A DNA stretch of 64,000 nucleotides, taken from the NCBI GenBank assembly GCA_035495555.1, contig DATJFQ010000042.1:75893-139892 (forward strand), read 5' to 3'. Below are positions 2,744 to 20,110 of this stretch, one piece after another. The number at the start of each line of letters is the position of its first letter. Positions within the stretch are counted from its first letter, which is position 1. Both the position numbers and the translations under genes were made by a program. The stretch comes from Vicinamibacterales bacterium. Lineage in GTDB: Bacteria > Acidobacteriota > Vicinamibacteria > Vicinamibacterales > 2-12-FULL-66-21. The notes beneath the pieces were generated by a model. That model did no database searches and was not told the DNA's origin. It saw only the letters and a program-made list of their open reading frames with translations.

Positions 2744-3706
2744 ATGCGTGTGTTGATCACCGGCGGCGCCGGTTTCATCGGATCTCATCTGTCTGACGCG
2801 TTGCTCGAACGCGGCGACGAGGTATTCGTTCTCGACGACTTGTCCACGGGCTCGATCGACAACATCGCGCACCTGAAAAACCACCCGAGATTTCACTACA
2901 CGATTGACACGGTCACCAACGAGCCGGTGCTCGCGGAGCACATCGACCGCGCAGACGTCGTCGTCCACCTCGCCGCAGCCGTGGGCGTGAAACTGATCGT
3001 CGAGCAGCCGGTACACACGATCGAGACGAACGTCCACGGCACAGAAGTCGTCCTCAAGCACGCGAACAAGAAGAAGAAGCTCGTGCTCATCGCCTCGACG
3101 TCAGAGGTCTACGGCAAGAGCGCGAACGTTCCGTTCCACGAGGACGCGGATCTGGTGCTCGGGCCGACGCTGAAGCATCGGTGGGCCTACGCGTGCAGCA
3201 AATTAATTGACGAGTTCCTGGCGCTGGCGTATTGGAAGGAAAAGAAGCTGCCGGTCATCATCGTCCGGCTCTTCAATACGGTCGGACCGCGGCAGACCGG
3301 CCACTATGGGATGGTCATTCCCACCTTCGTACGGCAGGCGCTCTCGGGCGTCCCTATCACCGTGTTCGGGGATGGGACCCAGTCGCGCAGTTTTACGTAC
3401 GTCGGCGACGTCGTGCGCGCTATGGTAGCCTTGATCAACGAGCCAAAAGCCGTCGGGCAGGTCTTCAACATCGGCAACGGCCGGGAGATCACCATCGGTG
3501 CGCTCGCCGAACGCATCCGGGACGTGACCGGCAGTTCATCGCCGATCGTGACCGTGCCGTACGAACAGGCATACGAAGCCGGGTTCGAAGACATGCCGCG
3601 GCGGGTTCCGGCGATCTCGAAAATCCAGGCGCTCGTCGGATACGCCCCGACGGTGGAACTCGACGAGATCCTCGCCCGCGTCATCGAATACAGTCGCCAG
3701 CAGTAG
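2744..3706 (+). CDS. NAD-dependent nucleotide-sugar epimerase/dehydratase (extended SDR family)
   Basis: N-terminal GGAGFIGSH Rossmann motif and a YACSK catalytic YxxxK motif. Length is typical at 320 aa. Confidence 0.85.
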   Translation: MRVLITGGAGFIGSHLSDALLERGDEVFVLDDLSTGSIDNIAHLKNHPRFHYTIDTVTNEPVLAEHIDRADVVVHLAAAVGVKLIVEQPVHTIETNVHGTEVVLKHANKKKKLVLIASTSEVYGKSANVPFHEDADLVLGPTLKHRWAYACSKLIDEFLALAYWKEKKLPVIIVRLFNTVGPRQTGHYGMVIPTFVRQALSGVPITVFGDGTQSRSFTYVGDVVRAMVALINEPKAVGQVFNIGNGREITIGALAERIRDVTGSSSPIVTVPYEQAYEAGFEDMPRRVPAISKIQALVGYAPTVELDEILARVIEYSRQQ

Positions 3707-3721: not shown

Positions 3722-4681
3722 ATGTCCCGATCGACGGGTGTCAAGTCCGCCGTGCGCCGCAGCGCCGAGTCGCTTCTGAAGCGCAACGCGAAGCCCGTTC
3801 GCCGCCTCCTGCTCGCCACGGGACGGGATCGCGCGCCGCGCGTCCCCGACATCGTGCAGATCGAAAGCACGAACATGTGCAACGCCAAGTGCGTGTTCTG
3901 TCCTCGCGACGAGATGCATCGCGAGGAAGGGATCATGGACATGGCGTTGTACCGGAAGATCGTCGACGAGTGCGCAGAACTCGGCATCACGCACGTGCGC
4001 ATGCACAACTACGGCGAGGCGTTTCTCGACCGGACGCTCGTCGAGAAGATCCAGTACGCGAAACAGGCGGGCATCACGGAAGTCGGGCTGATCAGCAATG
4101 GCTCGCTCATCACCGACCGTGTGGCACGCGGCATCGTCGACGCGGGACTCGACGCCATCAACATCAGCGTCGACGCGTCCGGGCGCGAGGTCTTCGAGTC
4201 GACGCGCCTCGGGCTGAATTACGACAAGGTCATTGCGAACGTCGAACGCCTCGTACGCATTCGAGCCGAGGCCGGGAAGCGGCGGCCGAAGCTCATTCTG
4301 TCGTTCGTCCGCCAGAACAACTCCGCCGACGAGCAGGCGTTCATCGAGCACTGGCGGAACATCGCCGACAAGATTCACATCACGGACCTGCACAACTGGG
4401 CGGGAACGCTCAACACGGAGTCGGATGTGAACTATCCCTGCTATCGTCCGTGGCTCACGTTCACGGTGCTGTGGGACGGACGCGTGTCGCTGTGCTGCGC
4501 CGACTTCGACGGGCGGACGGTGCTCGGCGACCTCAACGCCTCGTCGATCCGTGAGATCTGGAACGGCGAGGCTTACCGCGACGTTCGCCGCCAGCATCTG
4601 GAAAGCGGCGGCCCGGAGATCTGCCGGTCCTGCGATTTGCCTCGGAAAGACTCGCCGCTCTGGATCGCTCGCCTGCGGTAG
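3722..4681 (+). CDS. Radical SAM enzyme with C-terminal SPASM/twitch-type Cys cluster
   Basis: CNAKCVFC (CxxxCxxC) near the N-terminus. C-terminal CYRPW...CCADFDG...IWNG...CRSC pattern. Confidence 0.8.
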   Translation: MSRSTGVKSAVRRSAESLLKRNAKPVRRLLLATGRDRAPRVPDIVQIESTNMCNAKCVFCPRDEMHREEGIMDMALYRKIVDECAELGITHVRMHNYGEAFLDRTLVEKIQYAKQAGITEVGLISNGSLITDRVARGIVDAGLDAINISVDASGREVFESTRLGLNYDKVIANVERLVRIRAEAGKRRPKLILSFVRQNNSADEQAFIEHWRNIADKIHITDLHNWAGTLNTESDVNYPCYRPWLTFTVLWDGRVSLCCADFDGRTVLGDLNASSIREIWNGEAYRDVRRQHLESGGPEICRSCDLPRKDSPLWIARLR

Positions 4682-5580: not shown

Positions 5581-6288
5581 ATGGGCAGTCCACCGATGGT
5601 CCGGCGCGGCGAATACGCCGCGCGCGGCGAGTATCATCGTACGCCTGACCCCGCCTGGGACTACTATCCGACCTATATCGCGAAGCTCGAGGCGGTGCGC
5701 GGGTATCTGGACGCACTGCCCCGAGGCTCGCGCGTGCTCGACGCCGGGTGCGGCGAAGGGGTGCTCGTCTCCGAGTACGCGGATCGGCTCGAGATCTCCG
5801 GTGTGGACGCCAACTATGCGTCTGATCGCGTGATGCACGGCTCGGTGACCGCGCTGCCTTTCCCCGATGCGACGTTCGACCGCGCGCTGTGTCTGGACGT
5901 TCTCGAGCACCTCTCGTTCGAGGACCAGCCGCGCGCGCTCGGTGAGCTGCATCGGGTCCTGAAGCCTTCAGGCGAACTGCTCGTGTCGGTCCCCAACCTC
6001 GCGCACCTGCAGTCGCGCGTGCAGTTCGCGCTGCGGGGGCGGCTGATTCGCACTGCCTCAGAACTGAAGCACCCCGGCGATCGGCCCGCGGGCGAGTACA
6101 TGGCACTCGGGCGGCGCGCAGGGTTCAGGCTGGTCCGACGCGCCGGCATCTTCCCCACTGTTCCGGTCATCACGCATTACATCCGGCGGCACCCGAAGGC
6201 GCTCGCTCCGCTCCATCGCCTGCTGACGCGAGCACTGCCGGTTCCGGGGTGGTGCTTCCTGAACCTGCTCTTCTTCCGCAAGGGATAA
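5581..6288 (+). CDS. Class I SAM-dependent methyltransferase
   Basis: VLDAGCGEGV motif I, followed by LDVLEHL and LKPSGELLV motifs. Confidence 0.8.
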   Translation: MGSPPMVRRGEYAARGEYHRTPDPAWDYYPTYIAKLEAVRGYLDALPRGSRVLDAGCGEGVLVSEYADRLEISGVDANYASDRVMHGSVTALPFPDATFDRALCLDVLEHLSFEDQPRALGELHRVLKPSGELLVSVPNLAHLQSRVQFALRGRLIRTASELKHPGDRPAGEYMALGRRAGFRLVRRAGIFPTVPVITHYIRRHPKALAPLHRLLTRALPVPGWCFLNLLFFRKG

Positions 6289-6297: not shown

Positions 6298-7950
6298 TTG
6301 GGATCCAGACTTCGCGAGCTCTCGAAGAACATCACGATCTACGGCCTGGGCGACGTGGCGGTCTCGATCGTCAGCTTCTTCCTGCTGCCGATCTTCGTCG
6401 ACTATCTCGACGCGCGCGACTACGGGGTGCTCGCGATCCTCGGCAGCATCGAAGTCGTCGGCAAGATCGTTTTCCGGTTCGGCCTCGACGGCTCCTTCAT
6501 GCGGTTCTTCTACGACTGCGAAGCAGACGAGGACCGCCGGCGGCTCGCAAGCACCATCTTCTTCTTTCTGCTGGCGCTCAACGGAGTCGTGCTCGCGCCG
6601 CTCCTGATCTTCGCCCCGCAGATCGCCTCGTGGCTGTTCGGCACGAGCGGATACACGATGGCGCTGCGCCTGCTCCTCGTGAACACGTTCGCGATCGGCT
6701 TCACCTTTCTCCCCTTCCACGTGCTGCGCATCGAGCGGCAATCGACGATTTTCAGCGCGCTCACGCTCGCACGATCGGTGATGACGATCGTGCTCCGCGT
6801 CGTCTTCGTCATTTTTCTGCGCATGCACGTGACGGGTATCTACCTCGCCGACGTGCTCGTGACCGCGTGCGTCATGGTTGCGCTGGCGAAGTGGTTCGCG
6901 CCGCTGATCCGGCCTGTGTTCTCGTGGGCGACGCTGCGGGAGACGCTGGCGTTCGGACTGCCCCGTGTGCCGCACGCAGGGGCGCAGCAGGTCATGGCGG
7001 TCGGCGACCGCTTCATCCTGAACATGTTCGCAAAGGTCGACGAGGTCGGCATCTATCAGATCGCCGTCTCGTTCGGCCTGACCGAGAAGCTGTTCCTGAG
7101 CGCGTTTGAGTCCGCATGGGCGCCGTTCTACTACGCGACGGTGAAGGACGCCGACGCCCGCCGCGTATTCCGCACCGTGACGACGTATGGATTCGCGGTC
7201 CTCGTGCTGCTCACGGCGGGGTTGTCCGCGACCGGGCGGGACCTGGTGGAGGCCATGACGCACGGCCGGATCATGGCGCCAGCGGATCCGCGCTGGGCGG
7301 ACGTGGCGACCGTCATCACGTGGACCGCGGTCGGCGTGCTGCTGCAAGGCGTCTATCTCTTGACGTCGATCGGCCTGAATCTCACCAAGCGGACGCAGTA
7401 TTACCCGATCGCGACAAGCATCGCGGCCGCGACGAACGTCGGCCTGAATTTCCTGCTGATTCCGCGGTTCGGCATGGTCGGGGCGGCATGGGCCAACGGC
7501 GCGTGCTACGCCGTGCAGGCGCTGCTCGGCTATCTGTTTTCGCAGCGGTTCTACAACATCTCGTACGAGTGGGGCCGCCTGGCACGAGTCGCCGCAGCAG
7601 GCCTGATTGCGACGCTGGCTGCACATGCGCTTCCCGCTGTCCGCCTTGCCTCCGTGGATGCGCGGTCGGTCATGGCGGCGCTTCCCGACGCCTTCGCACG
7701 CGGCATCGTCGTCATCGCTGTCTACGTCGCATTGCTCGCCGCGACAGGGTTCCTGCGCGCCGAGGAATTGAGAGCGGTGCGCGCCATGTGGCGGCGCCAG
7801 CGTACGCCGCGGGTCGCAGGGACGCCCGACAGTACCGAACTGGCGGGGGCGATCGTCGCAACCGATGTCGTCGCGACGGCCGATGACGTGGCGATCGAGG
7901 AGAGCGGCGAACAGCCGTCAGCGTTGACAGCCGGGAGCCGGCGGACGTGA
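6298..7950 (+). CDS. Polysaccharide/oligosaccharide flippase (MOP superfamily, Wzx-like)
   Basis: 550 aa with many TM segments. The N-terminus LSKNITIYGLGDVAVSIVSFFLLPIFVDYL is typical of the Polysacc_synt family. TTG start. Confidence 0.75.
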   Translation: MGSRLRELSKNITIYGLGDVAVSIVSFFLLPIFVDYLDARDYGVLAILGSIEVVGKIVFRFGLDGSFMRFFYDCEADEDRRRLASTIFFFLLALNGVVLAPLLIFAPQIASWLFGTSGYTMALRLLLVNTFAIGFTFLPFHVLRIERQSTIFSALTLARSVMTIVLRVVFVIFLRMHVTGIYLADVLVTACVMVALAKWFAPLIRPVFSWATLRETLAFGLPRVPHAGAQQVMAVGDRFILNMFAKVDEVGIYQIAVSFGLTEKLFLSAFESAWAPFYYATVKDADARRVFRTVTTYGFAVLVLLTAGLSATGRDLVEAMTHGRIMAPADPRWADVATVITWTAVGVLLQGVYLLTSIGLNLTKRTQYYPIATSIAAATNVGLNFLLIPRFGMVGAAWANGACYAVQALLGYLFSQRFYNISYEWGRLARVAAAGLIATLAAHALPAVRLASVDARSVMAALPDAFARGIVVIAVYVALLAATGFLRAEELRAVRAMWRRQRTPRVAGTPDSTELAGAIVATDVVATADDVAIEESGEQPSALTAGSRRT

Positions 7951-9677
7951 AGAGACGCACCGGCCGCGAGGCTGCGGCGGTCCTCGTGACGATCGTGGCG
8001 CTCGCGGCGGCGCTTCGGTTGTGGGCCGTGTCGTACGGCCTGCCCGCGATTTTCAATCCCGACGAAATCCCGATTCTCAGCCGAGCGCTCGCGTTCGCGA
8101 AGGGAGATCTGAATCCGCACAACTTCCTGTATCCGACGCTGTACTTCTACGCGCTGTTCGTCTGGGAAACGCTGTATTTCGTCGTGGGACGCGTCGCTGG
8201 CCTCTACCACTCCGTCGCGGACTTTCAGAACGCGTTTTTCGTCGATCCGTCGCGCCTCGTCCTCGTCGGCCGCACGCTGACCGCGGCATTCGGGGTCGCG
8301 AGCGTCGTTGCGGTGTACGAGGCCGGCCGCCGATTCTTCGACCGGCAGGTCGGGATCGGAGCGGCCCTGTTCCTCGCGGTCGCGCCGTTCGCCGTGCGCG
8401 ACGCGCACTACGTGAAGCTCGACGTTCCGACCGCCTTTTTCGTGACGCTGGCGTATGCCGCGCTCGCGCGGCTCGTCGTCGGCGACCCAGGCGGTCCCGC
8501 GTCTCGGCCGTGGTCGTGGGTGCTCGCCGGGTATATCGGCGGCCTGGCGATGGCATCGCACTATTACGCGCTCTTCATCTGTGTGCCTTTCGCGGCCGCC
8601 GCGGTTATTCAGGGAGAGCGAACCGGCAATTGGCGCGCGGCGGCCGGCCTGCTCCTCGCCGCCGCGCTCGGCACGATCGCGGGGTTCGTCACTGGCTGTC
8701 CTTTCTTCTTCGTCGAGCCGCGGACGGCAATGCGCGACATCGCAGGCGTGCGTCAAGTCGACATCGATCGCGCGGTCGGCTCTGCGCAGGGCGCGTTTCC
8801 AACGCTCGACGTGTACTTCCACATGCTTTGGACCGACGCGATCGGCTGGCCCGTGTTCGCGGCTTCGCTGCTCGGCCTCGCCACCGCCGGCTGGCGGCGC
8901 AGTCTCGTCCTGGTGAGCTTTCCGGTTGCGTTCCTCGCCTTTATCGGTCACACGGTGCCGGAAAGCCGCTACCTGAACGTGCTGCTGCCGGTGATTGCCG
9001 TCGCCGGCGCCGCCGGTGTGGTCTGGACGCTGCGCCGTCTGCGTGCTGCGACTGTCCCGGCGACCGCAGCCGCGTTCCTGCTCTGCGCCACTCCGGGGCT
9101 GCTCCTCAGCGCCCGCTCGGATCGCTTCTTCCTGATGCGAGATACGCGTGCACTGGCAGCCGATTACATCGTGGAGCACGTCGCGCCGGGCGCCTCGATC
9201 CTGATCCAGCCATATAGCGCACCGCTCGCTCGCACGCGCGAGTCCATCATCGAAGCGTTGCGGCGCCACCTCGGCTCGGAGACCTCGGCGTCGATCAAGT
9301 TTCAGTTACAGCTCTCCGCCACCCCGTATCCTTCGCCGGCGTACCGGCTCATCTACCTCGGCGATGGCGGTGACGATCCCGACAAGATCTACGTGTCACC
9401 TCGAGCATTCCACGACGATTCACTGACACCGATCCTGACGCTTGGAGTGGATTACGTGGTGCTGAAGCGGTACAATATCGACAATCCAGCTCTGGGTCCC
9501 CTCGAGTCGGCTCTTCGGCAGCATGCGACGCTCGTGACGACGGTCTCGCCGTATCGGGCCGATGCGAGCGCCGCGGAGCGGGCGGCAACGGCTCCGTTTC
9601 TCCACAACACGGCGGCGCGCATCCAGCCCGCGCTCGAGCGCCCCGGACCAATCGTCGACGTCTGGCAGATCAAGTAA
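7947..9677 (+). CDS. GT-C membrane glycosyltransferase, GT39/ArnT-PMT-like
   Basis: GTGA start/stop overlap with the flippase. LRLWAVSYGLPAIFNPDEIPIL carries the DE motif in the first loop. Polytopic N-terminal half plus a soluble C-terminal domain. Confidence 0.65.
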   Translation: MKRRTGREAAAVLVTIVALAAALRLWAVSYGLPAIFNPDEIPILSRALAFAKGDLNPHNFLYPTLYFYALFVWETLYFVVGRVAGLYHSVADFQNAFFVDPSRLVLVGRTLTAAFGVASVVAVYEAGRRFFDRQVGIGAALFLAVAPFAVRDAHYVKLDVPTAFFVTLAYAALARLVVGDPGGPASRPWSWVLAGYIGGLAMASHYYALFICVPFAAAAVIQGERTGNWRAAAGLLLAAALGTIAGFVTGCPFFFVEPRTAMRDIAGVRQVDIDRAVGSAQGAFPTLDVYFHMLWTDAIGWPVFAASLLGLATAGWRRSLVLVSFPVAFLAFIGHTVPESRYLNVLLPVIAVAGAAGVVWTLRRLRAATVPATAAAFLLCATPGLLLSARSDRFFLMRDTRALAADYIVEHVAPGASILIQPYSAPLARTRESIIEALRRHLGSETSASIKFQLQLSATPYPSPAYRLIYLGDGGDDPDKIYVSPRAFHDDSLTPILTLGVDYVVLKRYNIDNPALGPLESALRQHATLVTTVSPYRADASAAERAATAPFLHNTAARIQPALERPGPIVDVWQIK

Positions 9678-9680: not shown

Positions 9681-10907
9681 ATGCAGTTGCGCCGCCGTCT
9701 CAAGGAATCGCTCGCCCGCCGTGCACGCGGCACGCGTGTGCTGACGCACGCCTGGGCGCGCTACCGCCGGCAGCGCTACGAGCGGCGCATCGCGAAATTC
9801 GTGGAAGCAGGCTCCGGCAGGGCCGACCGCCTGCCGATGGGGGCGGTCTACGAGGCGACGATGCGGTGCAACCTGCACTGTGAGTTCTGCTACGTGGGCG
9901 ACCTGCTGAACATCGAAGGCGAGTGGCGCCAGGAACTCACGCTGGAACAGCTCGAGCGTGCCTTTCCGGCTCGCGAAGACCTGCAGGTGAGCCTCACGGG
10001 CGGCGAGATCTTCATGCGGAAGGATATCCTGTCGGTCCTCGATCTCTTCCGCCGGAAGGGGTATGCCTGCGGCTACCTGACGACGAACGGGACGATCATC
10101 TCCGAGGAGCGCGCGGAAGCGCTGGCGGATCTCGCGGCGCAAGGCTTTCTCAAGCACATCAGCGTATCCGTCGATGGCCCCCGGGAGCTCCACGACGCAG
10201 CTCGCGGCGTGAAAGGCACGTTCGAGCGGACGTGCACGGGATTGCGCCGCCTCCAGCAAGCGGCGCGGCGCAAAGGTGCGCCGCTGCGCGTGTCGATCAA
10301 CACGACGGTGGCGCACGAGAGCCTGGAGGCCCTCGACACGATGGTCGATGTCGCCGAAGAACTCGGTGTCGATGCCATCGGGTTGAACCATCTGATGTTC
10401 AGCACGCCGGAGGAAGTCGCCGAAACGGTGCGATTGACCGGCGCGACTGACGCATCGCAGATCGCGACGTTCGTCACGCCTGATCCGGGACTCGACATCG
10501 CCCGCGTGCGCGCGCAGGTCGGCGCGCTCGAACGGCGGTGCCGCGAGCGCGGCATCCTCTTCGACTATCGCCCGAAGGTGCATCAGCCGCTGGTCGAGAA
10601 CTACTACACGCCGGGCACCCCGATGGCCGGCCGCTGCCTGTATCCGTTCCTCCACGCGCGTGTGTCGTTCTCGGGCAAGGTCTACTTCTGCCCGTTCATC
10701 CGGGTCGAGGTCGGCGATCTGGCCACATCGACGCTCGAAGAGGTCTGGAACGGCGACAAGTTCGTCGATATGCGCAAACGGCTCCTCGACAACGGCCTGT
10801 TTCCGGTGTGCCGCCGCTGCTGCAAGGTGGAACTCGCGCCGGAACCGCTTCCCCGCCCCGCCGTGGCCGCGCCGCGCCGGGCCATCCCGCTCACGGTGGT
10901 GCGCTGA
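9681..10907 (+). CDS. Radical SAM enzyme with SPASM-type C-terminal domain
   Basis: CNLHCEFC radical SAM motif. C-terminal CLYPF...CPFIRVEVGDL...VWNG...CRRCCK. Confidence 0.8.
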   Translation: MQLRRRLKESLARRARGTRVLTHAWARYRRQRYERRIAKFVEAGSGRADRLPMGAVYEATMRCNLHCEFCYVGDLLNIEGEWRQELTLEQLERAFPAREDLQVSLTGGEIFMRKDILSVLDLFRRKGYACGYLTTNGTIISEERAEALADLAAQGFLKHISVSVDGPRELHDAARGVKGTFERTCTGLRRLQQAARRKGAPLRVSINTTVAHESLEALDTMVDVAEELGVDAIGLNHLMFSTPEEVAETVRLTGATDASQIATFVTPDPGLDIARVRAQVGALERRCRERGILFDYRPKVHQPLVENYYTPGTPMAGRCLYPFLHARVSFSGKVYFCPFIRVEVGDLATSTLEEVWNGDKFVDMRKRLLDNGLFPVCRRCCKVELAPEPLPRPAVAAPRRAIPLTVVR

Positions 10908-10909
10908 CG

Positions 10910-12400
10910 ATGCTCGGACGTCGAACGCTGCTCGTCAACCCGCCGCTGGTCAACGGCATCGCGTTCACCCGCCAGGGCCGCTGCCAGGAGCGTGAGGAAG
11001 TGCTCGGCACCACGAAGCCGCCCTACACGCTCGCGGTGATCGCATCACTGCTGCGCCAGAACGGCTGCGACCTGCGTCTGGTGGATCTCACGGCGCAGCG
11101 GCGGACCCCCACTGACCTGATTGCCGACCTCGATGCCGAGGGCTTCATCCCGACGCTCATCCTCTTTCCCAGCACGACGCCAACGCTCGCGGCCGATGTC
11201 GCGGCGATGGCGGCGCTCAAAGCGCGCTACAACGCGCCGATGTTCTGCTTCGGGCCGCACGCCTCGACGACGCCGCAGCAGTCGATGCTGCGCGCTCCCG
11301 ACGTCGACGGCATGTTCGTCGGCGAGCCCGAGGACGCGGCCGTGCAGCTCGCCATGCTCGAATCGATCGACGCGTTGCCCGCCGTGGCGAGCCTCACATG
11401 GCGCCGCGCAGGCACGATTTTCCCCAATACGGCCCACGGCTCGTACGGCGGATTTCTCTCGATGCCGTATCCATCGTGGGATCTGGTACCGCTGAAATCG
11501 TACTCGCTGCCGCTCGTCAATCGGCCATACGTCATCGTCGAAACGAGCCGCGGATGTCCCTACTCCTGCGACTTCTGCGTCGCGCCGATTCATCAGGGCC
11601 ACAAGTTCCGCGAACGCAGCGCAAAGGCGCTCGTCGACGACATCGAGCGAGGCTATCGCGAGTTCGGCATCGACTTCTTCTATCTGTGGGGCGACACGGT
11701 GACGCTCAACGTCAAGAGCTTCACCGCGTTCTGCGACGAGCTCATCGCGCGGAACCTGCCCATCCAGTGGTTCGGAAACGCGCGCGCGGACAACCTCACG
11801 GATCCGGCGTTTGTCCACCGCCTGCGCAAGGCCGGCTGCTGGATGCTCGCGCTCGGCATCGAGACCGAGTCGGAAGACATCCGTAAGAACATGGTGAAGC
11901 GGCTCGAGCGCCAGAAGATTCAGACCGCGTTCCGCAACATGCGCGAGGCGGGGATCAGGTCGTTCGCGTTTTTCATCTTCGGGTACCCCGGCGAGACGAT
12001 CGACACGATGGATCACACCGTCGACTACGCCATCGAACTCGACCCCGATTTCGCGAACTTCTACCCGGCCGTTCCTTATCCCGGCACGGCGCTCTACGCG
12101 AAAGCGGTGCAGGAAGGCTGGCTGGTCGAAGAAGACTGGTCGCGGATGGAGTACTCGTTTTACCTGATGAACGGCAACGGCCTCGACGAACGCGTCGTGT
12201 TCGACGCGATCAATCGCGCCAAGCGCCGGTTCTTTCTGAGGCCGTCCTATGTGGCGCGACGGCTCGGCGACGTCGTGAAGCTGATGGCGACCAAACCCGC
12301 CATCGTGCGGCAGGTGCTCGCACGCGCGATCTTCGGGACGCGAGTGCCGGCGCCGCCGCGTGCTGAAGCCGTCAGCCCTGGCGGCGCGGCCCGAATCTGA
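10910..12400 (+). CDS. B12-binding-domain radical SAM enzyme
   Basis: ATG at 10910 lies 2 nt after the upstream stop. The N-terminal LLVNPP...PPYTLAVIASLL resembles a B12-binding domain. CPYSCDFC radical SAM motif. The track ORF starting at 10538 is over-extended. Confidence 0.75.
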   Translation: MLGRRTLLVNPPLVNGIAFTRQGRCQEREEVLGTTKPPYTLAVIASLLRQNGCDLRLVDLTAQRRTPTDLIADLDAEGFIPTLILFPSTTPTLAADVAAMAALKARYNAPMFCFGPHASTTPQQSMLRAPDVDGMFVGEPEDAAVQLAMLESIDALPAVASLTWRRAGTIFPNTAHGSYGGFLSMPYPSWDLVPLKSYSLPLVNRPYVIVETSRGCPYSCDFCVAPIHQGHKFRERSAKALVDDIERGYREFGIDFFYLWGDTVTLNVKSFTAFCDELIARNLPIQWFGNARADNLTDPAFVHRLRKAGCWMLALGIETESEDIRKNMVKRLERQKIQTAFRNMREAGIRSFAFFIFGYPGETIDTMDHTVDYAIELDPDFANFYPAVPYPGTALYAKAVQEGWLVEEDWSRMEYSFYLMNGNGLDERVVFDAINRAKRRFFLRPSYVARRLGDVVKLMATKPAIVRQVLARAIFGTRVPAPPRAEAVSPGGAARI

Positions 12401-12407
12401 CTCCGTC

Positions 12408-14240
12408 TTACGGCTCGAAGGTGCCGCCGAGGATCAGCGGACTGTCGGGCGGCAGCCAGTTCCCCTGCCTGCAATACCAGCCTGCCACCGGCGCCGTGCC
12501 GCTGCACGTTCCGTCGTTCGTCGATACGATTAACAAGCTGCCTGGCGGCAGCCAGCCGCCGTTCTGACACACCCACCCGGCGCCGGGCTGCACGGACGTG
12601 CAGGAGCTGGTCGTCGTCGTTGTCGTCGTCGTCGTGCTGCCCGGCGGGAGCCAGTTGCCGTTTACGCACGTCCAGCCGGTCCCTGGCTGCACGCTCGTGC
12701 AGGAGCTGGTCGACGAGGTGGTCGTGGTCGTGCTGCCTGGAGGCAGCCAGTTGCCGTTCACGCACGTCCAGCCGGTCCCTGGCTGCACGCTGGTGCAGCT
12801 CCCCGTTGATCCTGTGCCGCCGGTGCTGGTCGTCGGCGGGAGCCATCCACCATTGACGCATGTCCAGCCCGGACCCGGCTGCACGGTCGTGCACCCGCCC
12901 GTCGTGCTGGTCGTTCCGCCGGTCGTCGTGCTCCCTGGCGGCAGCCAGCCGCCATTCACGCACGTCCAGTCCGCTCCGGGTTGAACCGTCGTGCAGCCGC
13001 CGGTCGTTCCCCCTGTTGAACCGCCGCCCGAGGTCGTGCCGCCGCCACCCGTGTAGCTGCCGCCAGGACCGCCACCGGTGGTTCCCGTTTGAAGGACCAC
13101 TTCACCGATCCCCTGGAACTGGGAGAAGTTGGGGGATCCTGAGCCGCGGCTGACGACGGTGAAGAAGCGGGACATCGTGGCGCTGGCAGCGACCCGCGGG
13201 TAGCGGACCGGATTGAAGCCGGTCGAGAGGGTCTGATCCGAGCCGAACCGGACGCCGCTTGCGTTCAGCTCCGCCACATGCAGTTCATCGGATCCGTCGA
13301 TTCCAACGATTGCGGAGGTGCCGCTGTTGCGGTTGTAGGCGATCGCCAGCGCGTCGTAGGACCCGAAGTTCGCGGCCGTGCCAAACCCGATGAGACCGCC
13401 GCTGTTGTCGAACTCCGCCACCTTGGCGTTTCGCGTGCCGGCCACGTCCTGATACCACGCCATGAGGTAATGCTGCGTCGAGGAATTGAACGCCACGTCC
13501 GTCATGAAGGCCTTGGCGCCGGAAAGAGAATTGAAGGCGGTCCGGCGGAACCCGGACGGATTGGATGCGGGAACGATCGCGAGCGCGGATGACAAGCCGT
13601 CGTTATCGCTGATCGAGACGCCGAATTCGTCTCGGACCGAATTCCATGCGACGCTGGGGTTTTCGCCCTGGCCCGCGGAGACGGTCACCGGCCCCGTCAG
13701 CGTGCTTCCGTCCCCCGCGAGGAGCTGAACTTGCGTGATGTGCGTGATCGTCTCGTACGCGACAAGAAACTTTCCGGAGGTTCGCGAGAAATCGATCCCT
13801 GGCCCTCGTTCGCCGTACGGTGATGCGCCCGAAACCGTCATGGTCGTCCCCATCGCACCTGATGGACACGCAATGGTCCGGGCTTTCAGGAGCATTCCGC
13901 TGGTCTGCTCTTCCGGCCAGACGACGAGGAAATTCCCGGCGTTCGGATTGAATCTCGCGCGCGGGAACGAACCGAACGGATGTCCCTGCGCAGGCTTCAT
14001 GAGGACGGTTCCGCTGGCGACACCATCGGAGCCGATGCACTGCGCGTAAATGTAGTCGACCCCGCCGACGATCAGCCCCCCGCCCGACTCGTCGTGCGCG
14101 ACGTCCACGCCTCGGATGAAGGTCGAAAGCGTGGTGAGGGTGTTCACCTTGCTGATTTGCGCAAACGACGGCGCGGACAGCAGGGCCATGGCCCCGATCA
14201 GCATCAGAGTGACGCGGCGAAATTGCACAGGCTGCTCCAT
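12408..14240 (-). CDS. Secreted protein: N-terminal beta-propeller-like region plus six C-terminal Cys-pair mini-domain repeats with Thr/Gly/Ser linkers
   Basis: Signal peptide RRVTLMLIGAMALLSAPSFAQ. Recurrent blade-like motifs (FLVVW, FLVAYE, PSVAWN, YLMAWY). Six copies of C-x4-P-x-x-GW-x-C-x-x-G-x-WLPP. Confidence 0.8.
   Translation of the reverse strand: MEQPVQFRRVTLMLIGAMALLSAPSFAQISKVNTLTTLSTFIRGVDVAHDESGGGLIVGGVDYIYAQCIGSDGVASGTVLMKPAQGHPFGSFPRARFNPNAGNFLVVWPEEQTSGMLLKARTIACPSGAMGTTMTVSGASPYGERGPGIDFSRTSGKFLVAYETITHITQVQLLAGDGSTLTGPVTVSAGQGENPSVAWNSVRDEFGVSISDNDGLSSALAIVPASNPSGFRRTAFNSLSGAKAFMTDVAFNSSTQHYLMAWYQDVAGTRNAKVAEFDNSGGLIGFGTAANFGSYDALAIAYNRNSGTSAIVGIDGSDELHVAELNASGVRFGSDQTLSTGFNPVRYPRVAASATMSRFFTVVSRGSGSPNFSQFQGIGEVVLQTGTTGGGPGGSYTGGGGTTSGGGSTGGTTGGCTTVQPGADWTCVNGGWLPPGSTTTGGTTSTTGGCTTVQPGPGWTCVNGGWLPPTTSTGGTGSTGSCTSVQPGTGWTCVNGNWLPPGSTTTTTSSTSSCTSVQPGTGWTCVNGNWLPPGSTTTTTTTTTSSCTSVQPGAGWVCQNGGWLPPGSLLIVSTNDGTCSGTAPVAGWYCRQGNWLPPDSPLILGGTFEP
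12411..12995 (-). repeat. In-frame tandem coding repeats (six units of about 96-102 bp) within the secreted protein gene
   Basis: Units 12603-12701 and 12702-12797 are near-identical at DNA level (ccagttgccgtt[t/c]acgcacgtccagccggtccctggctgcacgct...). Confidence 0.9.
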
Positions 14241-14435: not shown

Positions 14436-15605
14436 TCAGCGGGTCAACGTGAGAATTCTGGCGGCAGCCTGAACTCTGGCGAGTGCATCCCCGCCGTGCA
14501 GCAGTTGCCTGAGTGCCGTGAGGTCGCTGGCCGTCAGCACTTCGGGGAGGGCCCGGGTCGCCATCTCGCGGATGGCAATATTTGGATCCGCCGAAGCCGC
14601 TTCCAGGACGCGCTTTGCGGATTCGGGGTCGTGAGGCGCCAGCAACCGTGCAGCCTGCACCCTGATTTCGGGCTCGGGCGACGACGTCAGGTCCCGCACG
14701 AGCGACATCCACGTGGGGTCGGGCGAGGTGGACATTGCTTCGGCCGCCGCAATCCGGCCGGAGGGGATGTCGCCGGCCGCGAGCTGCTGCAGCAGCGGCA
14801 GGCCGCTCATGTCCCCCAGCCGGAACAAGGCACGGGCGGCGTGCGTCCGGACAAACGCGCTCGAGTCCGAGAGAAGCGTCCTGAGCACGCCGATCTGATC
14901 GTCGGCGTGGAGTTCCGCCAGCGCGTCGGCGACGGACGCACGCACTTCGTCTCGCGGATCGGTCGCCTGCGCCGCGATGGCTGGCAGCGCCGACCGCCGG
15001 CGGCTCTGACCGAGCGCTTCGACGATCCGAGCCTTGTCGGGATTGCCCGCCGCGAGCTGCCCGCTCAGCTCTCGCACCGCCTGCGCGCTTCCGAGCGCCG
15101 CGAGCGTGCGCGTGTTCGCGGGAAGGGTTGACGCCTCCAGGGCCGACACGGCTTCCTGCTGTCCATCCTCCGCAAGCGCCCGCAGCGCTTCGAGGCGCAC
15201 CTGCGTATCCGATTGCTGGCTGCCCGCTTCGTGGAGCACCGCGCTGCCAATCCGCCGCAGCACTGCCGGCTCTTCGTACGGGCGGCTCCCCAACCACTGC
15301 TCGTATTGCGCGATCCCGTTCGACGCCCCCCCGCGCGCGATCGCCGCCTCGACGCCCAGCGACAAGGCTGCCGCGCTCCGCGGATAGCGGACGAGCACCT
15401 CGTTCGCCTTCCGATACGCGTCGTCGACAAGGCCCTGCGACAGCAGAGCCCACCCGTTCGTCAGCAGAATCGCTTCCGTCGAAGCGCTTCCCGGCGCCGG
15501 CTTCTGCTGGTTACGCGTGCGCGACGCGGGCGTCGATTGCGCAGCGGGGGCGGCACCGGCGATGAGAGCCGAAAGCGTAAGGGCGACGCAACCTGACAAC
15601 GTCAT
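14436..15605 (-). CDS. Secreted HEAT/TPR-like repeat protein
   Basis: Start chosen at MTLSGCVALTLSALIAGAAPAAQ (signal peptide). Repeated Ala/Leu-rich helical units with DP..VR motifs typical of HEAT repeats. Confidence 0.6.
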   Translation of the reverse strand: MTLSGCVALTLSALIAGAAPAAQSTPASRTRNQQKPAPGSASTEAILLTNGWALLSQGLVDDAYRKANEVLVRYPRSAAALSLGVEAAIARGGASNGIAQYEQWLGSRPYEEPAVLRRIGSAVLHEAGSQQSDTQVRLEALRALAEDGQQEAVSALEASTLPANTRTLAALGSAQAVRELSGQLAAGNPDKARIVEALGQSRRRSALPAIAAQATDPRDEVRASVADALAELHADDQIGVLRTLLSDSSAFVRTHAARALFRLGDMSGLPLLQQLAAGDIPSGRIAAAEAMSTSPDPTWMSLVRDLTSSPEPEIRVQAARLLAPHDPESAKRVLEAASADPNIAIREMATRALPEVLTASDLTALRQLLHGGDALARVQAAARILTLTR

Positions 15606-15636
15606 GTGGTACGAGTTCAGACGACTGCGGCGGCAA

Positions 15637-16395
15637 TCAGGCCGGTGACAGCCGCCGGTATTCGCGGCGCGCGCGATGCCGCTCGCGCCATCGCACGCGG
15701 TACAAGCTGCGCAATTGCAGCAGATAGCCGAGCGCTTCACGGGTGCTCATCTTGCTCTCGCCGGCCTCGCGATCGTCGAAGCGATACGGCACTTCGACCA
15801 GGCGATGCGGCCACGCGCGCACGATCAGCTCGAGACAGATTTTGAAGCCGCCGGCGTGGATCTGCACCCCTTCCGCAACTTCGCGGCGCAGCAGAAAAAA
15901 GCCCGATGCGGCGTCACGAATCGGCGACAGCGGCCGTGCGAGCAGGCACGCGGCCCGTGAGAGCACCTTGCGGCGGAGCGGCCAGTCCGGCGTGCTGCCG
16001 CCGGGCACGTATCGGCTGGCGACGACGAGATCGGCCCCCGTCGCACGCTGCGCCGCAAGGAGTTTCGGCACGAGGGACGGCGGGTGGCTGAAATCGGCAT
16101 CCATGACGCCCAGAATCGGCGCGGCCGCCACGTCGAATCCCGCTACGACGGCGGTGCCGAGCCCGAGCTTTCCCGTCCGATGGACGACCCGAATGCGTCG
16201 GGTGCGGGCGAGATCGTCCGCCAGCGCACCAGTGCCGTCGGGTGAGTTGTCGTCGACGATGACGAGTTCGAGATCGAGCCCGGCGTCACGGGTGACGGAA
16301 AAGAGGGCATCGACGAGCTCGCCCAGGCGCTCACGCTCGTTATAGGTTGGAATGACGATCGTCAGGTCCGGCGCGCCCGGCGTCGGAGAAGGCAC
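15637..16395 (-). CDS. Polyprenyl-phosphate mannose (or related hexose) synthase, GT2 Dpm1/Ppm1-like
   Basis: LTIVIPTYNERERL, VIVDDNSPDGTG, VMDADFSHPP and ASRYVPGGS motifs match the DPM1/Ppm1 family. GTG start. Confidence 0.8.
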   Translation of the reverse strand: MPSPTPGAPDLTIVIPTYNERERLGELVDALFSVTRDAGLDLELVIVDDNSPDGTGALADDLARTRRIRVVHRTGKLGLGTAVVAGFDVAAAPILGVMDADFSHPPSLVPKLLAAQRATGADLVVASRYVPGGSTPDWPLRRKVLSRAACLLARPLSPIRDAASGFFLLRREVAEGVQIHAGGFKICLELIVRAWPHRLVEVPYRFDDREAGESKMSTREALGYLLQLRSLYRVRWRERHRARREYRRLSPA

Positions 16396-16430: not shown

Positions 16431-18104
16431 ATGACCGCGCGCGCCCGTTCGTTCGTTCCAGTGCTGCTCGCGCTCGTGGCTTTGGGCGCGGTGCTCCGCA
16501 CGGCGTGGCTTCGCGCCGACCCGCCATGGTTTCCCACCGTCGGCATTATCTGGCATGACGAAGGCGCGTGGGTGCACAACGCACGCAACAAGGCGTTGTT
16601 CGGCGCCTGGCGGGAGGACGAATGGAATCCGATGTACGTGGCGCCGGTGTTCACGGTCGCCGAGTACGCCTCGTTCAGCGCCTTCGGCGTCGGCACGTGG
16701 CAGGCGCGCCTCGTGTCCGCCGTGGCGGGGACGATATCGATTGCGCTGCTCGCGCTCGGCGTGCGCCGGCTCGCCGGGACGTCGGCGGGCGCTATCGCCG
16801 CAGCGCTCCTGGCGACGGATTACGTTTACGTCATGTACGACCGCGCCGCGATCATGGAGGCGCTGATGGTCGCGTGCATCGTTGCCGCCTGGTGGGCGTC
16901 GACGAGGGCGGAAGACCGACCGGAATGGGGTGCGCTGGCAGGCGTGTTGGCGGCGGCCGCGTACTTCACGAAGGCGGCTGCAGCGTTCTACGTAGCCGCG
17001 CTCGCGATTGCCGCTGCGTGGAGTCTCCTTCGCCCGCGCGTCAGCCACGAACGAAAAGCCGCGGTGTGGACGATCGCGGGCCTGGCGGTGGCGTTCGGCG
17101 CTGCAGCCCTCTTGTTCGTGCTGCCGCACTGGACGGACTATCGCTTCTACAACTGGCAAATGTCGGTCACCCGGAAACCGTCGTACGATCTCCGGTCGAT
17201 CGTGACGCGAGTGTCCTGGTTCCCGATTCTCCACGATCAGTTCTCGCGCACGTGGCTGATCGTAGTTGTCGGCACCTTGGGCGGGTGGTCGATCCTGGTC
17301 CGATGGGCGCGGGCGCTGACGTCCGAACGCCTGCTGCTGCTGTGGCTGGCCGTCGGAATCGCCGAGCTGCTGGTGCACGACGTCGGCAACGAACGGCGGT
17401 TCGTGTTCCTGATCCCGGTGCTCATCGCGATCACCGCGATCGTGCTCGCGCGAGGCAAGGGCCTGCTCCCGGAAGACGTCCGCCTCGTCTCCTCGAAGAC
17501 GGTGTGGCTGCTGTCGCCCGCCATTCTCTACAGCGCGTACATCGTCTGCGGACCCGTCGCACGGCTTGCGTTCATTTACGAGGTGAAGGAGGAAGCGCGG
17601 CTCTCCGGGATTCTTGGAGTGGCGCTGGGGCTGGTGGTGCTCGTATTCTGGGAACGGCTCGCCGTATGGCTCAGCGCGGGCCGCTGGTCCACCCGGGTTG
17701 CGGCCGCCCTCACCGCGGCGCTCGTTGGCGCAAACCTCGTCGAGTTCACGCAGTACGCCATGCGGCGCACCTACAAGAACTATTACGCGTCGGTGGAACT
17801 CGGGCGGGTGCTCCCGCCAGGCACTGAAGTGCAGGGAAAACTCGCGAACGGGCTCGCGCTCGAGAATGGCATCCGTCCCATCTTCATCGGCCACGGTTTC
17901 GGGAACTTCGCGGACCGGAAGCGGCGCGAAGATGTGCGGTATATTTTGACGTATACAGCGCCAGCGCTCGGCTACGAAGGGTCCCAAATCGAGGATGTGC
18001 TCGCCGCATATCCGGGCTGGCGGGTCATCATGAGCTTCGACGTCGCAGAGACTCCGTCCGGACACGATCGCGCCGCATTGATCGACAAGCGTGCGGGTCA
18101 TTGA
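16431..18104 (+). CDS. GT-C membrane glycosyltransferase, GT39/ArnT-PMT-like
   Basis: LRTAWLRADPPWFPTVGIIWHDEGAWVHNARN carries the DE loop motif. It has more than 10 TM segments. It is divergent from the Dpm1-like gene across 35 bp. Confidence 0.7.
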   Translation: MTARARSFVPVLLALVALGAVLRTAWLRADPPWFPTVGIIWHDEGAWVHNARNKALFGAWREDEWNPMYVAPVFTVAEYASFSAFGVGTWQARLVSAVAGTISIALLALGVRRLAGTSAGAIAAALLATDYVYVMYDRAAIMEALMVACIVAAWWASTRAEDRPEWGALAGVLAAAAYFTKAAAAFYVAALAIAAAWSLLRPRVSHERKAAVWTIAGLAVAFGAAALLFVLPHWTDYRFYNWQMSVTRKPSYDLRSIVTRVSWFPILHDQFSRTWLIVVVGTLGGWSILVRWARALTSERLLLLWLAVGIAELLVHDVGNERRFVFLIPVLIAITAIVLARGKGLLPEDVRLVSSKTVWLLSPAILYSAYIVCGPVARLAFIYEVKEEARLSGILGVALGLVVLVFWERLAVWLSAGRWSTRVAAALTAALVGANLVEFTQYAMRRTYKNYYASVELGRVLPPGTEVQGKLANGLALENGIRPIFIGHGFGNFADRKRREDVRYILTYTAPALGYEGSQIEDVLAAYPGWRVIMSFDVAETPSGHDRAALIDKRAGH

Positions 18105-18936
18105 CGAACGCGCCATCAAGGCGCACGCGGATCTGCGTTTCCGCTCCGAATACGATTACGCGCTGTTCGAGTACTACCGCAGCGCCAAGGTGATCGCCTT
18201 TCTCGAACGCGCCGGCGTTCGCCTGCATGGCGCGGTGCTCGACGCCGGGTGCGGCGGCGGGGGCATGCCGCTCTCGCTCGCCGAAGAGGCGGGCCCGGTG
18301 GTCGGCATCGATCCGATCAACCGGTTCGGCGACGCAGGCGTTCGGCTTGCGGCGGAGCGCGGGCTCACGAACCTGCATTTCGCGCTCGCGGACGGCATGC
18401 AGTTGCCGTTCCCGAAGGGTGTCTTCGATCTCGTGCTGTCGCACGCGGTGATCGAGCATGTGGCTGACGCGCCTCTGTATCTGCGCGAGTGCGCGCGCGT
18501 CCTCGCGCCGGCTGGACGCATCTATCTGTCGACGGCGCCGTATCTGTCGTTCGCGGGCGCTCACCTGCCGAGGCTGAAAGTGCCGGTGCCGCTGCATCTC
18601 CTCGTGGGCCGCCGGCTGGCGTTCAGCACCTTCCGCGCGCTGGCGCGGCACGCCACGTGGGCCTTGCGCGAGCCGGCAAACGAAAATTCGTTCATCAAGC
18701 TCGCCCGTCGCGGGGAAAGCAAGGAAGACGACCTGCTCGAAAAGGTGCGCGTCGCGCGTTTGCGGCGGCAGATCGCGGGCGCGGGACTGCGGATCGTCCG
18801 GGAGGAGCTGAACGTCACGGCGACGGTTCGTCGGCTGCCGGCCGCGCTCGCGCGGGCCGTACAGAACAGCCGTTTGATTCAGGACGTGTTCATCAGCAGC
18901 ATGGAATACGTTTTGGCTCATAAGGCACCCGCCTGA
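18091..18936 (+). CDS. Class I SAM-dependent methyltransferase
   Basis: VLDAGCGGGG motif I, plus FDLVLSHAVIEHV and LAPAGRIYLS. Confidence 0.75.
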   Translation: MRVIDERAIKAHADLRFRSEYDYALFEYYRSAKVIAFLERAGVRLHGAVLDAGCGGGGMPLSLAEEAGPVVGIDPINRFGDAGVRLAAERGLTNLHFALADGMQLPFPKGVFDLVLSHAVIEHVADAPLYLRECARVLAPAGRIYLSTAPYLSFAGAHLPRLKVPVPLHLLVGRRLAFSTFRALARHATWALREPANENSFIKLARRGESKEDDLLEKVRVARLRRQIAGAGLRIVREELNVTATVRRLPAALARAVQNSRLIQDVFISSMEYVLAHKAPA

Positions 18937-18937
18937 T

Positions 18938-19981
18938 ATGGCCGACGTCACCCGATACCGCCCGGACGACCGACGCGCCGTCGAAGCGCTCTACCGCCGC
19001 GTCTTCGGCAACGACGCCGCCGAGAGCAGCCGTCTGCGCTGGGAATGGCAGTACCGGCGCAATCCCAACAATCCTGGCGGCGAGCCCGAAATCTGGATCG
19101 CGCGCGAGGGCACGGCGCTCGTCGGCCAATACGCGACCATGCCGGTCAAGCTCTCGGTCAAGGGCGACGAGATCAAGGGGTCCTGGGGGATGGACGTCAT
19201 GGTCGCGCCGGAACGCCAGCGCCAGGGCCTGGGCGAGGTGCTGTTCCGCACGTGGGACCGCAACGTCGGCGCGTCGCTCGGCCTGGGACTGTCCGACGCC
19301 TCGTACCGGCTGTTCCAGAAGCTGCGCTGGCCCGACGTCGGTCCGATCCCGTGCCTCGTCAAGCCGTTGTCAAGGCGCGCGTTCCGCCATCCCCGCTGGC
19401 CGACAGCCATCAATCGCCTCATCTCCGCCGTGACCTTTCCTGTCGTGCTGCTGGTGGCGCGCAGCCGTCCACTGCGCGCGGAGGTGCGGCTCGTGCCCCG
19501 ATTCGACGACAGCTTCACGGAGCTGTGGGACGCGCTCGCTCCACGCTTCGACGTAGCCGTCCGCCGCGACGCCGCATATCTGAACTGGAAGTTCGCGACG
19601 GCACCGCACGTGCGCTATACGATGGCGGCGTTGCTGCGGCAGGGAAAAGTCGCCGGGTATGCGGTGTACCGGCACGTCCACGAACCGCGCGGCCGAGTCA
19701 CACTGCTGGTCGATTTCCTGACGGATCCGGACGACGAGAACGGGTTCACGACGCTGCTCCGCTGGGTGGACCGCGAAGCGCGCGAGGCGGACTCCGACAA
19801 GATCCGCGTCTTCGCGCTCCACGCCGCGTTCCGGCGGCTGCTCAAGAAATCCGGGTACTTTCAGGTGAAGTCCACGATGGAGTTCGTCATCAAGGTGAAC
19901 GACGCAGAAGTACCGCACGACTTTTACGAGAACACCGACGGATGGCACGTAACGCTGGGCGACTCGGATCAGGATCGGTAG
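18938..19981 (+). CDS. GNAT-family acetyltransferase
   Basis: VMVAPERQRQGLGEVLF acetyl-CoA binding motif (Q/R-x-x-G-x-G). 347 aa. Confidence 0.65.
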   Translation: MADVTRYRPDDRRAVEALYRRVFGNDAAESSRLRWEWQYRRNPNNPGGEPEIWIAREGTALVGQYATMPVKLSVKGDEIKGSWGMDVMVAPERQRQGLGEVLFRTWDRNVGASLGLGLSDASYRLFQKLRWPDVGPIPCLVKPLSRRAFRHPRWPTAINRLISAVTFPVVLLVARSRPLRAEVRLVPRFDDSFTELWDALAPRFDVAVRRDAAYLNWKFATAPHVRYTMAALLRQGKVAGYAVYRHVHEPRGRVTLLVDFLTDPDDENGFTTLLRWVDREAREADSDKIRVFALHAAFRRLLKKSGYFQVKSTMEFVIKVNDAEVPHDFYENTDGWHVTLGDSDQDR

Positions 19982-20010
19982 GAGACTGCTGAAGAGCGCG
20001 GCAGATAACG

Positions 20011-20105: not shown

Positions 20106-20110
20106 TCTTG

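Follow-up and report, generated by a model that had tools for sequence, protein, structure and literature searches.

Three radical S-adenosylmethionine (SAM) enzymes are encoded in a glycan locus of about 22 kb within a 64,000-nucleotide stretch of DNA from a Vicinamibacterales bacterium (phylum Acidobacteriota; assembly GCA_035495555.1, contig DATJFQ010000042.1, forward-strand positions 75,893 to 139,892), below called the window. Two of them, SPASM1 and SPASM2, match the Pfam SPASM model, and the third has the layout of radical SAM enzymes with an N-terminal B12-binding domain (the B12-type enzyme). The observations as a whole are best explained if the three genes are working parts of a conserved envelope glycoconjugate locus of some Vicinamibacterales, where they tailor sugars. 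We consider this explanation probable. As judged from the sequences, the best reading of the activity is that a sugar linked to a nucleotide or to polyprenyl phosphate is tailored by radical chemistry.

The original prediction, made from the window alone, named two possible targets: the sugar or lipid carrier made by this island, and the neighbouring secreted repeat proteins, for example a protein with Cys/Trp mini-repeats encoded next to the B12-type gene. The former is favoured, since gene order is conserved in 80 related loci, the B12-type gene is linked to a family 2 glycosyltransferase (GT2), and the relatives AprD4 and BtrN act on sugars. The latter is disfavoured, since the repeat gene and its HEAT-repeat companion form a patchy pair (the repeat gene is present in 14 of 63 loci, at shifting positions) with no positive link to SPASM2, and neither an RRE domain nor room for a precursor gene was found. 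On the whole, the original prediction is partly supported.

Conservation of the locus in relatives

The genome of the window is 4.4 Mb in size and 99.3% complete, and the window itself is part of a 217-kb contig. Near-identical public proteins carry the label Vicinamibacterales, phylum Acidobacteriota. Two samples were used for comparison. The first comprises 300 genomes of the phylum, about 29 of them from the order of the window. The second is a scan of species-representative genomes that gave 448 relatives, of which the best 80 loci were compared; all of these come from metagenome-assembled genomes (MAGs), labelled Vicinamibacterales or Acidobacteriota, with a few records under other names.

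Orthologues of the B12-type enzyme (at least 65% identity) were found in only five of the 300 genomes, all from the order of the window, and the next identity is 35%. SPASM1 and SPASM2 have orthologues in the same five genomes, and SPASM2 also in a further one, G198. The four other genomes with all three enzymes, from four other families of the order, share the complete locus in the same gene order, apart from the repeat and HEAT genes, which are missing. The locus is also syntenic in the best 80 loci from the scan with 448 relatives, and its tail (a second methyltransferase, a GNAT-type acyltransferase, a polysaccharide-deacetylase-like protein and a GT4 glycosyltransferase) is present in L001-L004 and in most of L008-L087. 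The presence of single genes is given in Table 1; each gene was counted only in loci with enough flanking sequence, hence the differing denominators.

SPASM2 lies directly upstream of the B12-type gene in most loci. An obligate pair is ruled out, as 11 of 76 loci contain no SPASM2 and G198 has SPASM2 but no orthologue of the B12-type enzyme. The presence of SPASM2 changes about eight times on the tree. Thus SPASM2 is an accessory partner of the B12-type enzyme, lost several times. The convergence of the B12-type gene with the repeat gene across 7 nucleotides (nt), pointed out in the original prediction, is real in the window but is not a conserved layout: the B12-type gene and the GT2 gene are directly convergent in L003, L004 and most other loci.

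Locus L128 (G198:C9:3000-22900), from another family of the order, retains methyltransferase 1, SPASM2, a PMT_2-type GT-C membrane glycosyltransferase (GT-C 1), the GNAT protein, the deacetylase and GT4. It shows no B12-type enzyme, SPASM1 or short-chain dehydrogenase/reductase (SDR), and its SPASM2 match has one in-frame TGA. Most relatives (among them L026 at 12310-14006, L015, L030 and L067) contain an extra gene for about 550 amino acids (aa) between GT2 and the second GT-C gene, where the window has none; the L026 copy encodes a PMT_2-type GT-C.

The B12-type enzyme belongs to an HpnJ-like family

The B12-type enzyme has the class-B layout, that is, an N-terminal B12-like Rossmann domain followed by the CxxxCxxC core, here CPYSCDFC at residues 216-223, and it aligns with class-B families over its full length. 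The Pfam B12-binding match covers residues 34-147 (30.7 bits, E 3e-7, against a gathering score of 32.1). The NCBIfam scores are 176.9 bits for BchE (TIGR02026, cut-off 481), 176.7 bits for HpnJ (TIGR03471, cut-off 577.6) and 114.5 bits for the AprD4 family NF033070 (cut-off 500). The match to ApyD is weaker than those to BchE and HpnJ and below cut-off, and there are weak matches to TIGR04072 and HpnR (lipid-associated). The best solved homologue is AprD4 (PDB 6fd2; 7.2e-26, 22% identity).

AprD4 is also the top match by fold search, and the fold matches further include TsrM, OxsB, MgmA and TokK. These searches weigh little, since the AlphaFold models of SPASM2 and the B12-type enzyme have pLDDT values of 65 and 59 and were built from shallow alignments of sequences with 68-100% identity; the N-terminal domain of the B12-type enzyme is modelled with pLDDT of about 80-95.

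In the tree the clade of the window's B12-type enzyme is monophyletic with support of 100 and has a long stem. True HpnJ proteins, found in 35 of 301 sampled genomes, group in a clade of their own, and the enzyme from the window does not fall among them; its clade shares one side of the tree with them and with most of the homologues adjacent to GT2 (support 91). By its scores and its position in the tree the enzyme is assigned to an HpnJ-like but unnamed family, and not to HpnJ, BchE or AprD4.

A hopanoid or bacteriochlorophyll function is ruled out by scores below the family cut-offs, by the tree and by the lack of a cyclase: no match to squalene-hopene cyclase (PF13243) and no match to HpnJ above its cut-off were found in the whole genome of the window. 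Cultured strains of subdivision 6 Acidobacteria make no hopanoids (PMC5462960). The original prediction had named two findings that would speak against it, membership of the enzymes in clades of known, unrelated function and lack of conserved linkage to the locus. Neither was observed: the scores for HpnJ, BchE and AprD4 are below the cut-offs, there is no cyclase, and the linkage is conserved.

The genome contains one cobalamin riboswitch, and CbiB was not matched in it, which suggests that cobalamin is obtained by uptake; at this level the data are silent on the B12-type enzyme itself. The original prediction also stated that B12 radical SAM enzymes commonly methylate unactivated carbons. 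This proved a weak guide here: to our knowledge, none of the functions reported for BchE, HpnJ and AprD4 is that of a methylase. C-methylation by the B12-type enzyme is possible, but it is not the default expectation, because two ordinary methyltransferases are present in the locus and the nearest named families are, as far as we know, not methylases.

Association of the B12-type family with GT2

The link between the B12-type enzyme and GT2 extends beyond the orthologues. Homologues with 30-39% identity in other Acidobacteriota have a GT2 neighbour in 13 of 21 loci. In several of these GT2-linked loci a carbamoyltransferase and a PMT_2 GT-C follow downstream, or an SDR stands in between. Ten distant homologues were scanned against the families, nine of them beside or near GT2. 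HpnJ is the best family for eight and is approximately tied with BchE for two, all below cut-off. One such protein has homologues with 50-55% identity in Thermodesulfobacteriota, and a Thermodesulfobacteriota MAG contig has the same four-gene order, GT2, B12 enzyme, carbamoyltransferase, PMT_2. A contig of 8 kb labelled Candidatus Hodarchaeota (L149) contains bacterial-type genes for GT2, a B12 radical SAM enzyme and a carbamoyltransferase, and ends soon after; this cassette in an Asgard bin reflects either transfer or a binning error.

In L148, a Desulfobacterota MAG contig, the genes after GT2 and the B12-type gene encode a PNP_UDP_1 nucleoside phosphorylase and a VitK2_biosynth (MqnA-like) protein, in place of the carbamoyltransferase and GT-C.

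Twitch-type and B12-type radical SAM genes adjoin again in unrelated acidobacterial clusters. Seven loci of other Acidobacteriota (L135, L138-L141, L143, L145) contain a gene for a rhomboid-like membrane protein, then two successive pairs of twitch-type and B12-type genes; the copy in L143 adjoins adenosylhomocysteinase. The window contains a homologue of the rhomboid-like gene (22858-23637, 37-45% identity) with no radical SAM genes beside it.

The same data bear on the possibility that the enzymes modify a lipid, be it the polyprenyl carrier, a membrane lipid or a glycolipid anchor. Many class-B radical SAM enzymes modify lipids, and the HpnJ-like placement and the weak matches to TIGR04072 and HpnR agree with such a target. 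The basic N-terminal extensions of SPASM1 and SPASM2 could bind a membrane surface, and the GT4, deacetylase and GNAT proteins could build a glycolipid. Moreover, another acidobacterial family has an LPG_synthase_TM protein between a SPASM-less radical SAM gene and the B12-type gene, followed by a twitch/SPASM gene. However, the constant partners of the B12-type enzyme are sugar enzymes (GT2, carbamoyltransferase, SDR, GT-C), the locus contains no genes of fatty-acid or isoprenoid synthesis, and HpnJ, the nearest named relative acting on a lipid conjugate, alters the sugar head group (PMC13459092). We therefore regard a lipid target as unlikely.

SPASM1 and SPASM2 are candidate twitch-type enzymes

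SPASM1 has the radical SAM motif CNAKCVFC at residues 53-60 and a C-terminal cysteine set C240, C258, C259, C301, C304, with the spacing C240-x17-C258...C301-x2-C304. In SPASM2 the motif is CNLHCEFC at residues 63-70, and the C-terminal set C319, C337, C377, C380, C381 has the spacing C319-x17-C337...C377-x2-C380; the radical SAM cysteines and those of the C-x17-C...C-x2-C pattern are invariant across 26 homologues of SPASM2. The seven-cysteine SPASM motif (CX9-15GX4C...CX2CX5CX3C...C) is absent from both proteins, although the Pfam SPASM matches pass the cut-off. We take the observed spacing to be the twitch pattern of the BtrN structure, with one auxiliary cluster, and not that of a full SPASM domain. 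By the four-cysteine criterion both sequences would fall into the twitch subclass. Thus the SPASM type given in the original prediction stands at the level of Pfam matches, but with only four to five C-terminal cysteines it has to be narrowed to the twitch pattern.

The best PDB match of SPASM1 is BtrN (4m7t, 2.8e-14), with an alignment limited to the N-terminal 120 residues. For SPASM2 the best solved homologue is SkfB (2.6e-8). Identity with the anaerobic sulfatase maturase (anSME) was rejected: anSME chains match at 7e-4 only and with no significant stretch, and anSME is outside the top 25 NCBIfam families. No PqqD/RRE domain was matched by Pfam at E<=0.01 in either enzyme. There is no room for an adjacent gene of a precursor peptide, as the gaps around SPASM2 and the B12-type gene are 3, 2 and 7 nt. 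Both enzymes carry basic N-terminal extensions, and that of SPASM2 is predicted by AlphaFold as one long helix. Structure prediction as a means to separate sugar-acting from peptide-acting enzymes was dropped, since the models are poor.

With a gene that starts 15 nt after that of the SDR and a sequence closest to BtrN, SPASM1 is probably an oxidising or epimerising enzyme whose substrate is a nucleotide sugar or an intermediate related to one.

The NCBIfam results raise the question whether the radical SAM genes merely lie in the island and serve unrelated housekeeping, as maturases of cofactors or metalloenzymes or in heme or molybdopterin-type chemistry. The top names are AhbD/NirJ for SPASM2 and a tungsten-cofactor maturase and MoaA for SPASM1. 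However, these scores are 3- to 6-fold below the cut-offs. Among about 29 genomes sampled from the order, only five contain the orthologues, in each case within the glycan locus, and gaps of 2-15 nt tie the radical SAM genes to sugar genes. A housekeeping role is thus highly improbable.

The repeat/HEAT pair and the secreted 264-aa protein

The position of the repeat/HEAT pair varies. It occupies either the interval between the B12-type gene and GT2, on the minus strand, as in the window, or the interval between GT2 and GT-C 2, on the plus strand. The HEAT protein, where present, is always near GT2. Crossing SPASM2 with the pair gives 45 loci with SPASM2 only, nine with both, eight with the pair only and none with neither; with a stricter flank requirement the numbers are 41, 9, 7 and 0. 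No positive co-occurrence of SPASM2 with the repeat protein was observed among these loci; the trend is inverse and not significant (six independent pairs, median p 0.125). In the six independent pairs on the B12 tree SPASM2 and the repeat pair never change in the same direction. The co-occurrence check suggested with the original prediction thus gave no positive link. The pair is a facultative, repeated visitor of the locus, because it is present in 14-16 of 63 loci, shifts its position, and has propeller homologues (27-31% identity) on other contigs in the four other locus-bearing genomes. Nothing links it to the radical enzymes.

The secreted 264-aa protein has weak matches to the N-terminal part of PilQ/HofQ and contains no cysteine. 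The composition of its low-complexity tail is kept, and an acidic patch (DDDDEP-like) and the motif ...(L/V)T(A/S)PRPG(M/x)LP... occur across most relatives (L008-L086).

Another possible target is one of the secreted proteins encoded in the locus, either the one with Cys/Trp repeats or the one of 264 aa, which the enzymes would modify ahead of export. There is a precedent, as the anaerobic sulfatase maturase acts on sulfatases before they are exported. Two of the enzymes match the SPASM model, and there are weak matches to peptide maturases such as SkfB, PqqE and anSME; the occurrence of the repeat/HEAT pair at two positions is beyond a single chance insertion; and the 264-aa protein, with its conserved tail motif, is encoded after SPASM1 in 59 of 60 loci. 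On the other hand, 41-45 loci have SPASM2 and the B12-type gene but no repeat/HEAT pair, every locus lacking SPASM2 has the pair, and the two do not change together on the tree. The propeller homologues on other contigs point the same way. The enzymes have no RRE/PqqD domain, and the model of SPASM2 starts with one long helix. The cysteines are those of the twitch pattern rather than of full SPASM, the 264-aa protein has none, and relatives of the B12-type enzyme accompany GT2, not peptides. A protein target is thus distinctly unlikely, and the repeat protein is not the likely target of the radical enzymes.

Gene layout of the locus

The genes of the locus are listed in Table 1. The GC content of the window is about 66%, and the bias in GC content at third codon positions (GC3) marks the true frames, including all open reading frames (ORFs) of the radical SAM neighbourhood. 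The coordinates in the original prediction (9681-10907 for the SPASM-type gene, 10910-12400 for the B12 radical SAM gene, gaps of 2 and 7 nt, and the third gene at 3722-4681) agree exactly with the codon check and Pfam. GT-C 1 stops with TAA at 9675-9677 and SPASM2 starts with ATG at 9681 (3-nt gap). SPASM2 stops with TGA at 10905-10907, 2 nt before the ATG of the B12-type gene at 10910. The latter stops with TGA at 12398-12400 and, after 7 nt, is followed by TTA at 12408-12410, which is the TAA stop codon of the repeat gene on the minus strand.

Table 1. Genes of the glycan locus in the window, the basis of their annotation and their presence in related loci
Product	Position	Strand	Basis and remarks	Loci with the gene
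GT-like "surface carbohydrate biosynthesis" protein	110-1360	+	weak TIGR04326/TIGR04396 and Capsule_synth/DUF6716 matches; first conserved locus gene within the window	54/57
Polytopic membrane protein, 452 aa	1360-2718	+	frame of ORF 859-2718; sliding GC3; hydrophobic, multi-pass	
NAD-dependent sugar epimerase/dehydratase (SDR)	2744-3706	+	Epimerase 198.8 bits	56/59
Radical SAM enzyme 1 (SPASM1), 319 aa	3722-4681	+	Radical_SAM 65.8 bits, SPASM 61.4 bits; core gene, 15 nt after SDR	57/59
Secreted protein, 264 aa	4769-5563	+	signal peptide, STN-like domain, acidic patch, Pro/Gln/Gly-rich tail; core gene	59/60
Class I SAM methyltransferase 1	5581-6288	+	Methyltransf_11/23/25 matches	58/61
Wzx/MOP-type flippase	6298-7950	+	Polysacc_synt 31 bits; HfsF-like 66.5 bits	60/64
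GT-C 1, membrane glycosyltransferase (PMT_2/ArnT-like)	7947-9677	+	PMT_2 42.8 bits; variable gene	44/68
Radical SAM enzyme 2 (SPASM2), 408 aa	9681-10907	+	Radical_SAM 65.5 bits, SPASM 41.7 bits	64/76 directly upstream of the B12-type gene; missing in 11
Class-B-type radical SAM enzyme (B12-type), 496 aa	10910-12400	+	Radical_SAM 73.1 bits, B12-binding 30.7 bits	
Secreted propeller protein, six Cys/Trp mini-repeats	12408-14240	-	translation	14/63
HEAT-repeat protein	14436-15740	-	HEAT_2 77.4 bits; accompanies the repeat protein, abuts GT2	16/63
GT2 polyprenyl-phosphate sugar synthase (DPMS/Ppm1-like)	15637-16395	-	PDB 5mlz, archaeal dolichol-phosphate mannose synthase (DPMS), 2.4e-53	58/63
GT-C 2, membrane glycosyltransferase (PMT_2)	16431-18104	+	PMT_2 59.5 bits	52/60
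Locus tail: methyltransferase 2, GNAT-type acyltransferase, polysaccharide-deacetylase-like protein, GT4	18091-22203	+		

The SDR is nearest to the UDP-xylose synthase/ArnA-decarboxylase and LegB types (NF008872, 177.5 bits; TIGR04180, 175.4 bits), both below the cut-offs. No Pfam match was found for the membrane protein at 1360-2718. ORF 1608-2756 was rejected as a wrong frame by sliding GC3, despite tblastn matches in relatives. The PDB search with the deacetylase-like protein gave nothing useful. The HEAT and GT2 genes, both on the minus strand, share about 100 nt (15637-15740, with the starts as called), and close abutment is also seen in L029, L063, L065 and L068. The island extends upstream of the window (61000-75892 of the contig), where GT4, four GT2s, a PMT_2 protein, a pair of SDR and DegT aminotransferase, a GT9 heptosyltransferase and an 825-aa protein without any Pfam match are encoded.

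Proposed pathway

Gene content, synteny, family placement and cysteine patterns were observed, whereas for the class of substrate, the order of steps and the chemistry we rely on genomic context and family placement. In the cytoplasm, the SDR and the adjoining twitch enzyme SPASM1 would make or alter sugars, and the DPMS-like GT2 would load a sugar onto polyprenyl phosphate. The B12-type enzyme would then change this sugar on the cytoplasmic face of the membrane, most likely by a radical, non-methylating reaction such as rearrangement, dehydration/deoxygenation or ring contraction. This step is placed before flipping because of the constant company of GT2 and GT-C and the precedent of HpnJ. 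In most lineages SPASM2 may add a further oxidation or epimerisation, which would be dispensable in others. The lipid-linked material would be flipped across the membrane, and PMT_2-type GT-C transferases would pass it to an acceptor in the envelope outside the membrane. The repeat protein would be a facultative passenger and not a substrate.

Several observations weigh against tailoring of a sugar as the role of the radical enzymes. The adjacency of GT2 fits a nucleotide sugar, a lipid-linked sugar, a lipid carrier and a finished glycan alike. The B12-binding match is just below threshold, and the nearest solved relative, AprD4, reportedly does not use cobalamin. The fold search with the low-confidence model of SPASM2 mixes sugar-acting and peptide-acting enzymes: DesII, BlsE and viperin appear together with SkfB, SuiB and anSME. 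The 264-aa protein, whose gene adjoins that of SPASM1, equals the enzymes in conservation and is a possible protein partner. G198 has SPASM2 with GT-C but no orthologue of the B12-type enzyme at E<=1e-30; therefore these two radical enzymes are not an obligate pair. Finally, no cultured organism with the glycan locus was found; all 80 loci come from MAGs, and the sampled genomes of the order that consist of a single contig contain no orthologue.

A more specific version of the pathway may be drawn by analogy with HpnJ. The B12-type enzyme might contract a polyprenyl-phosphate-linked hexose into a carbocycle, as proposed for HpnJ, and GT-C might then move the carbocycle to the envelope. Ring contraction of a sugar to a carbocycle is also proposed for the archaeal calditol synthase. 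Though rather unlikely, this version would have a clear consequence: if it is true, carbasugar or cyclitol units, so far undescribed for bacterial envelopes, are part of the surface glycans of abundant soil Acidobacteria and of other phyla that carry the GT2-B12-GT-C cassette.

Vicinamibacterales are common, mostly uncultured soil bacteria, and their envelopes are essentially unstudied. That an unnamed HpnJ-like family accompanies a synthase of lipid-carrier sugars in two or more bacterial phyla points to an uncharacterised modification of cell-surface sugars, which could matter for adhesion in soil, phage recognition and biomarker chemistry.

Comparison with known systems

In the searched literature the substrates of radical SAM enzymes are antibiotic sugars, hopanoid head groups and peptides, and there is no description of such enzymes in a polyprenyl-phosphate/GT-C envelope pathway or of the present combination of enzymes. 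Four known systems resemble parts of the locus.

The first is HpnI-HpnK-HpnJ. The genetically studied HpnJ works on lipid-linked glucosamine downstream of the GT2 HpnI and the deacetylase HpnK, and ring contraction was proposed for it (PMC13459092). In both systems a B12-domain radical SAM enzyme is accompanied by a GT2 and a deacetylase or deacetylase-like gene. However, the GT2 of the locus is DPMS-like and followed by GT-C transferases, and the genome has no squalene-hopene cyclase. The window's enzyme itself scores 176.7 bits against the HpnJ cut-off of 577.6 and is outside the true HpnJ clade.

AprD4, a radical SAM 1,2-diol dehydratase of apramycin synthesis, has the two-domain layout of the B12-type enzyme and acts on a sugar. 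The identity is only 22%, AprD4 serves an antibiotic pathway and acts on a free pseudodisaccharide, and the window's model in this comparison is of low confidence.

BtrN, a twitch radical SAM dehydrogenase of butirosin synthesis, shares the C-x17-C...C-x2-C spacing with SPASM1 and SPASM2, and its substrate is of the carbohydrate type. The enzymes from the window are 70-160 residues longer, have basic N-terminal extensions, and are encoded in an envelope glycan locus instead of an antibiotic cluster.

Finally, envelope modification of the Arn/Lgm/Flm type and mannosylation of the Ppm1/PMT type are similar to the locus in a GT2 forming a polyprenyl-phosphate sugar, a deacetylase or deacetylase-like protein, a flippase and a PMT_2/ArnT-like GT-C. 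Those systems contain no radical SAM enzymes, whereas the locus has three, plus two methyltransferases and a GNAT protein.

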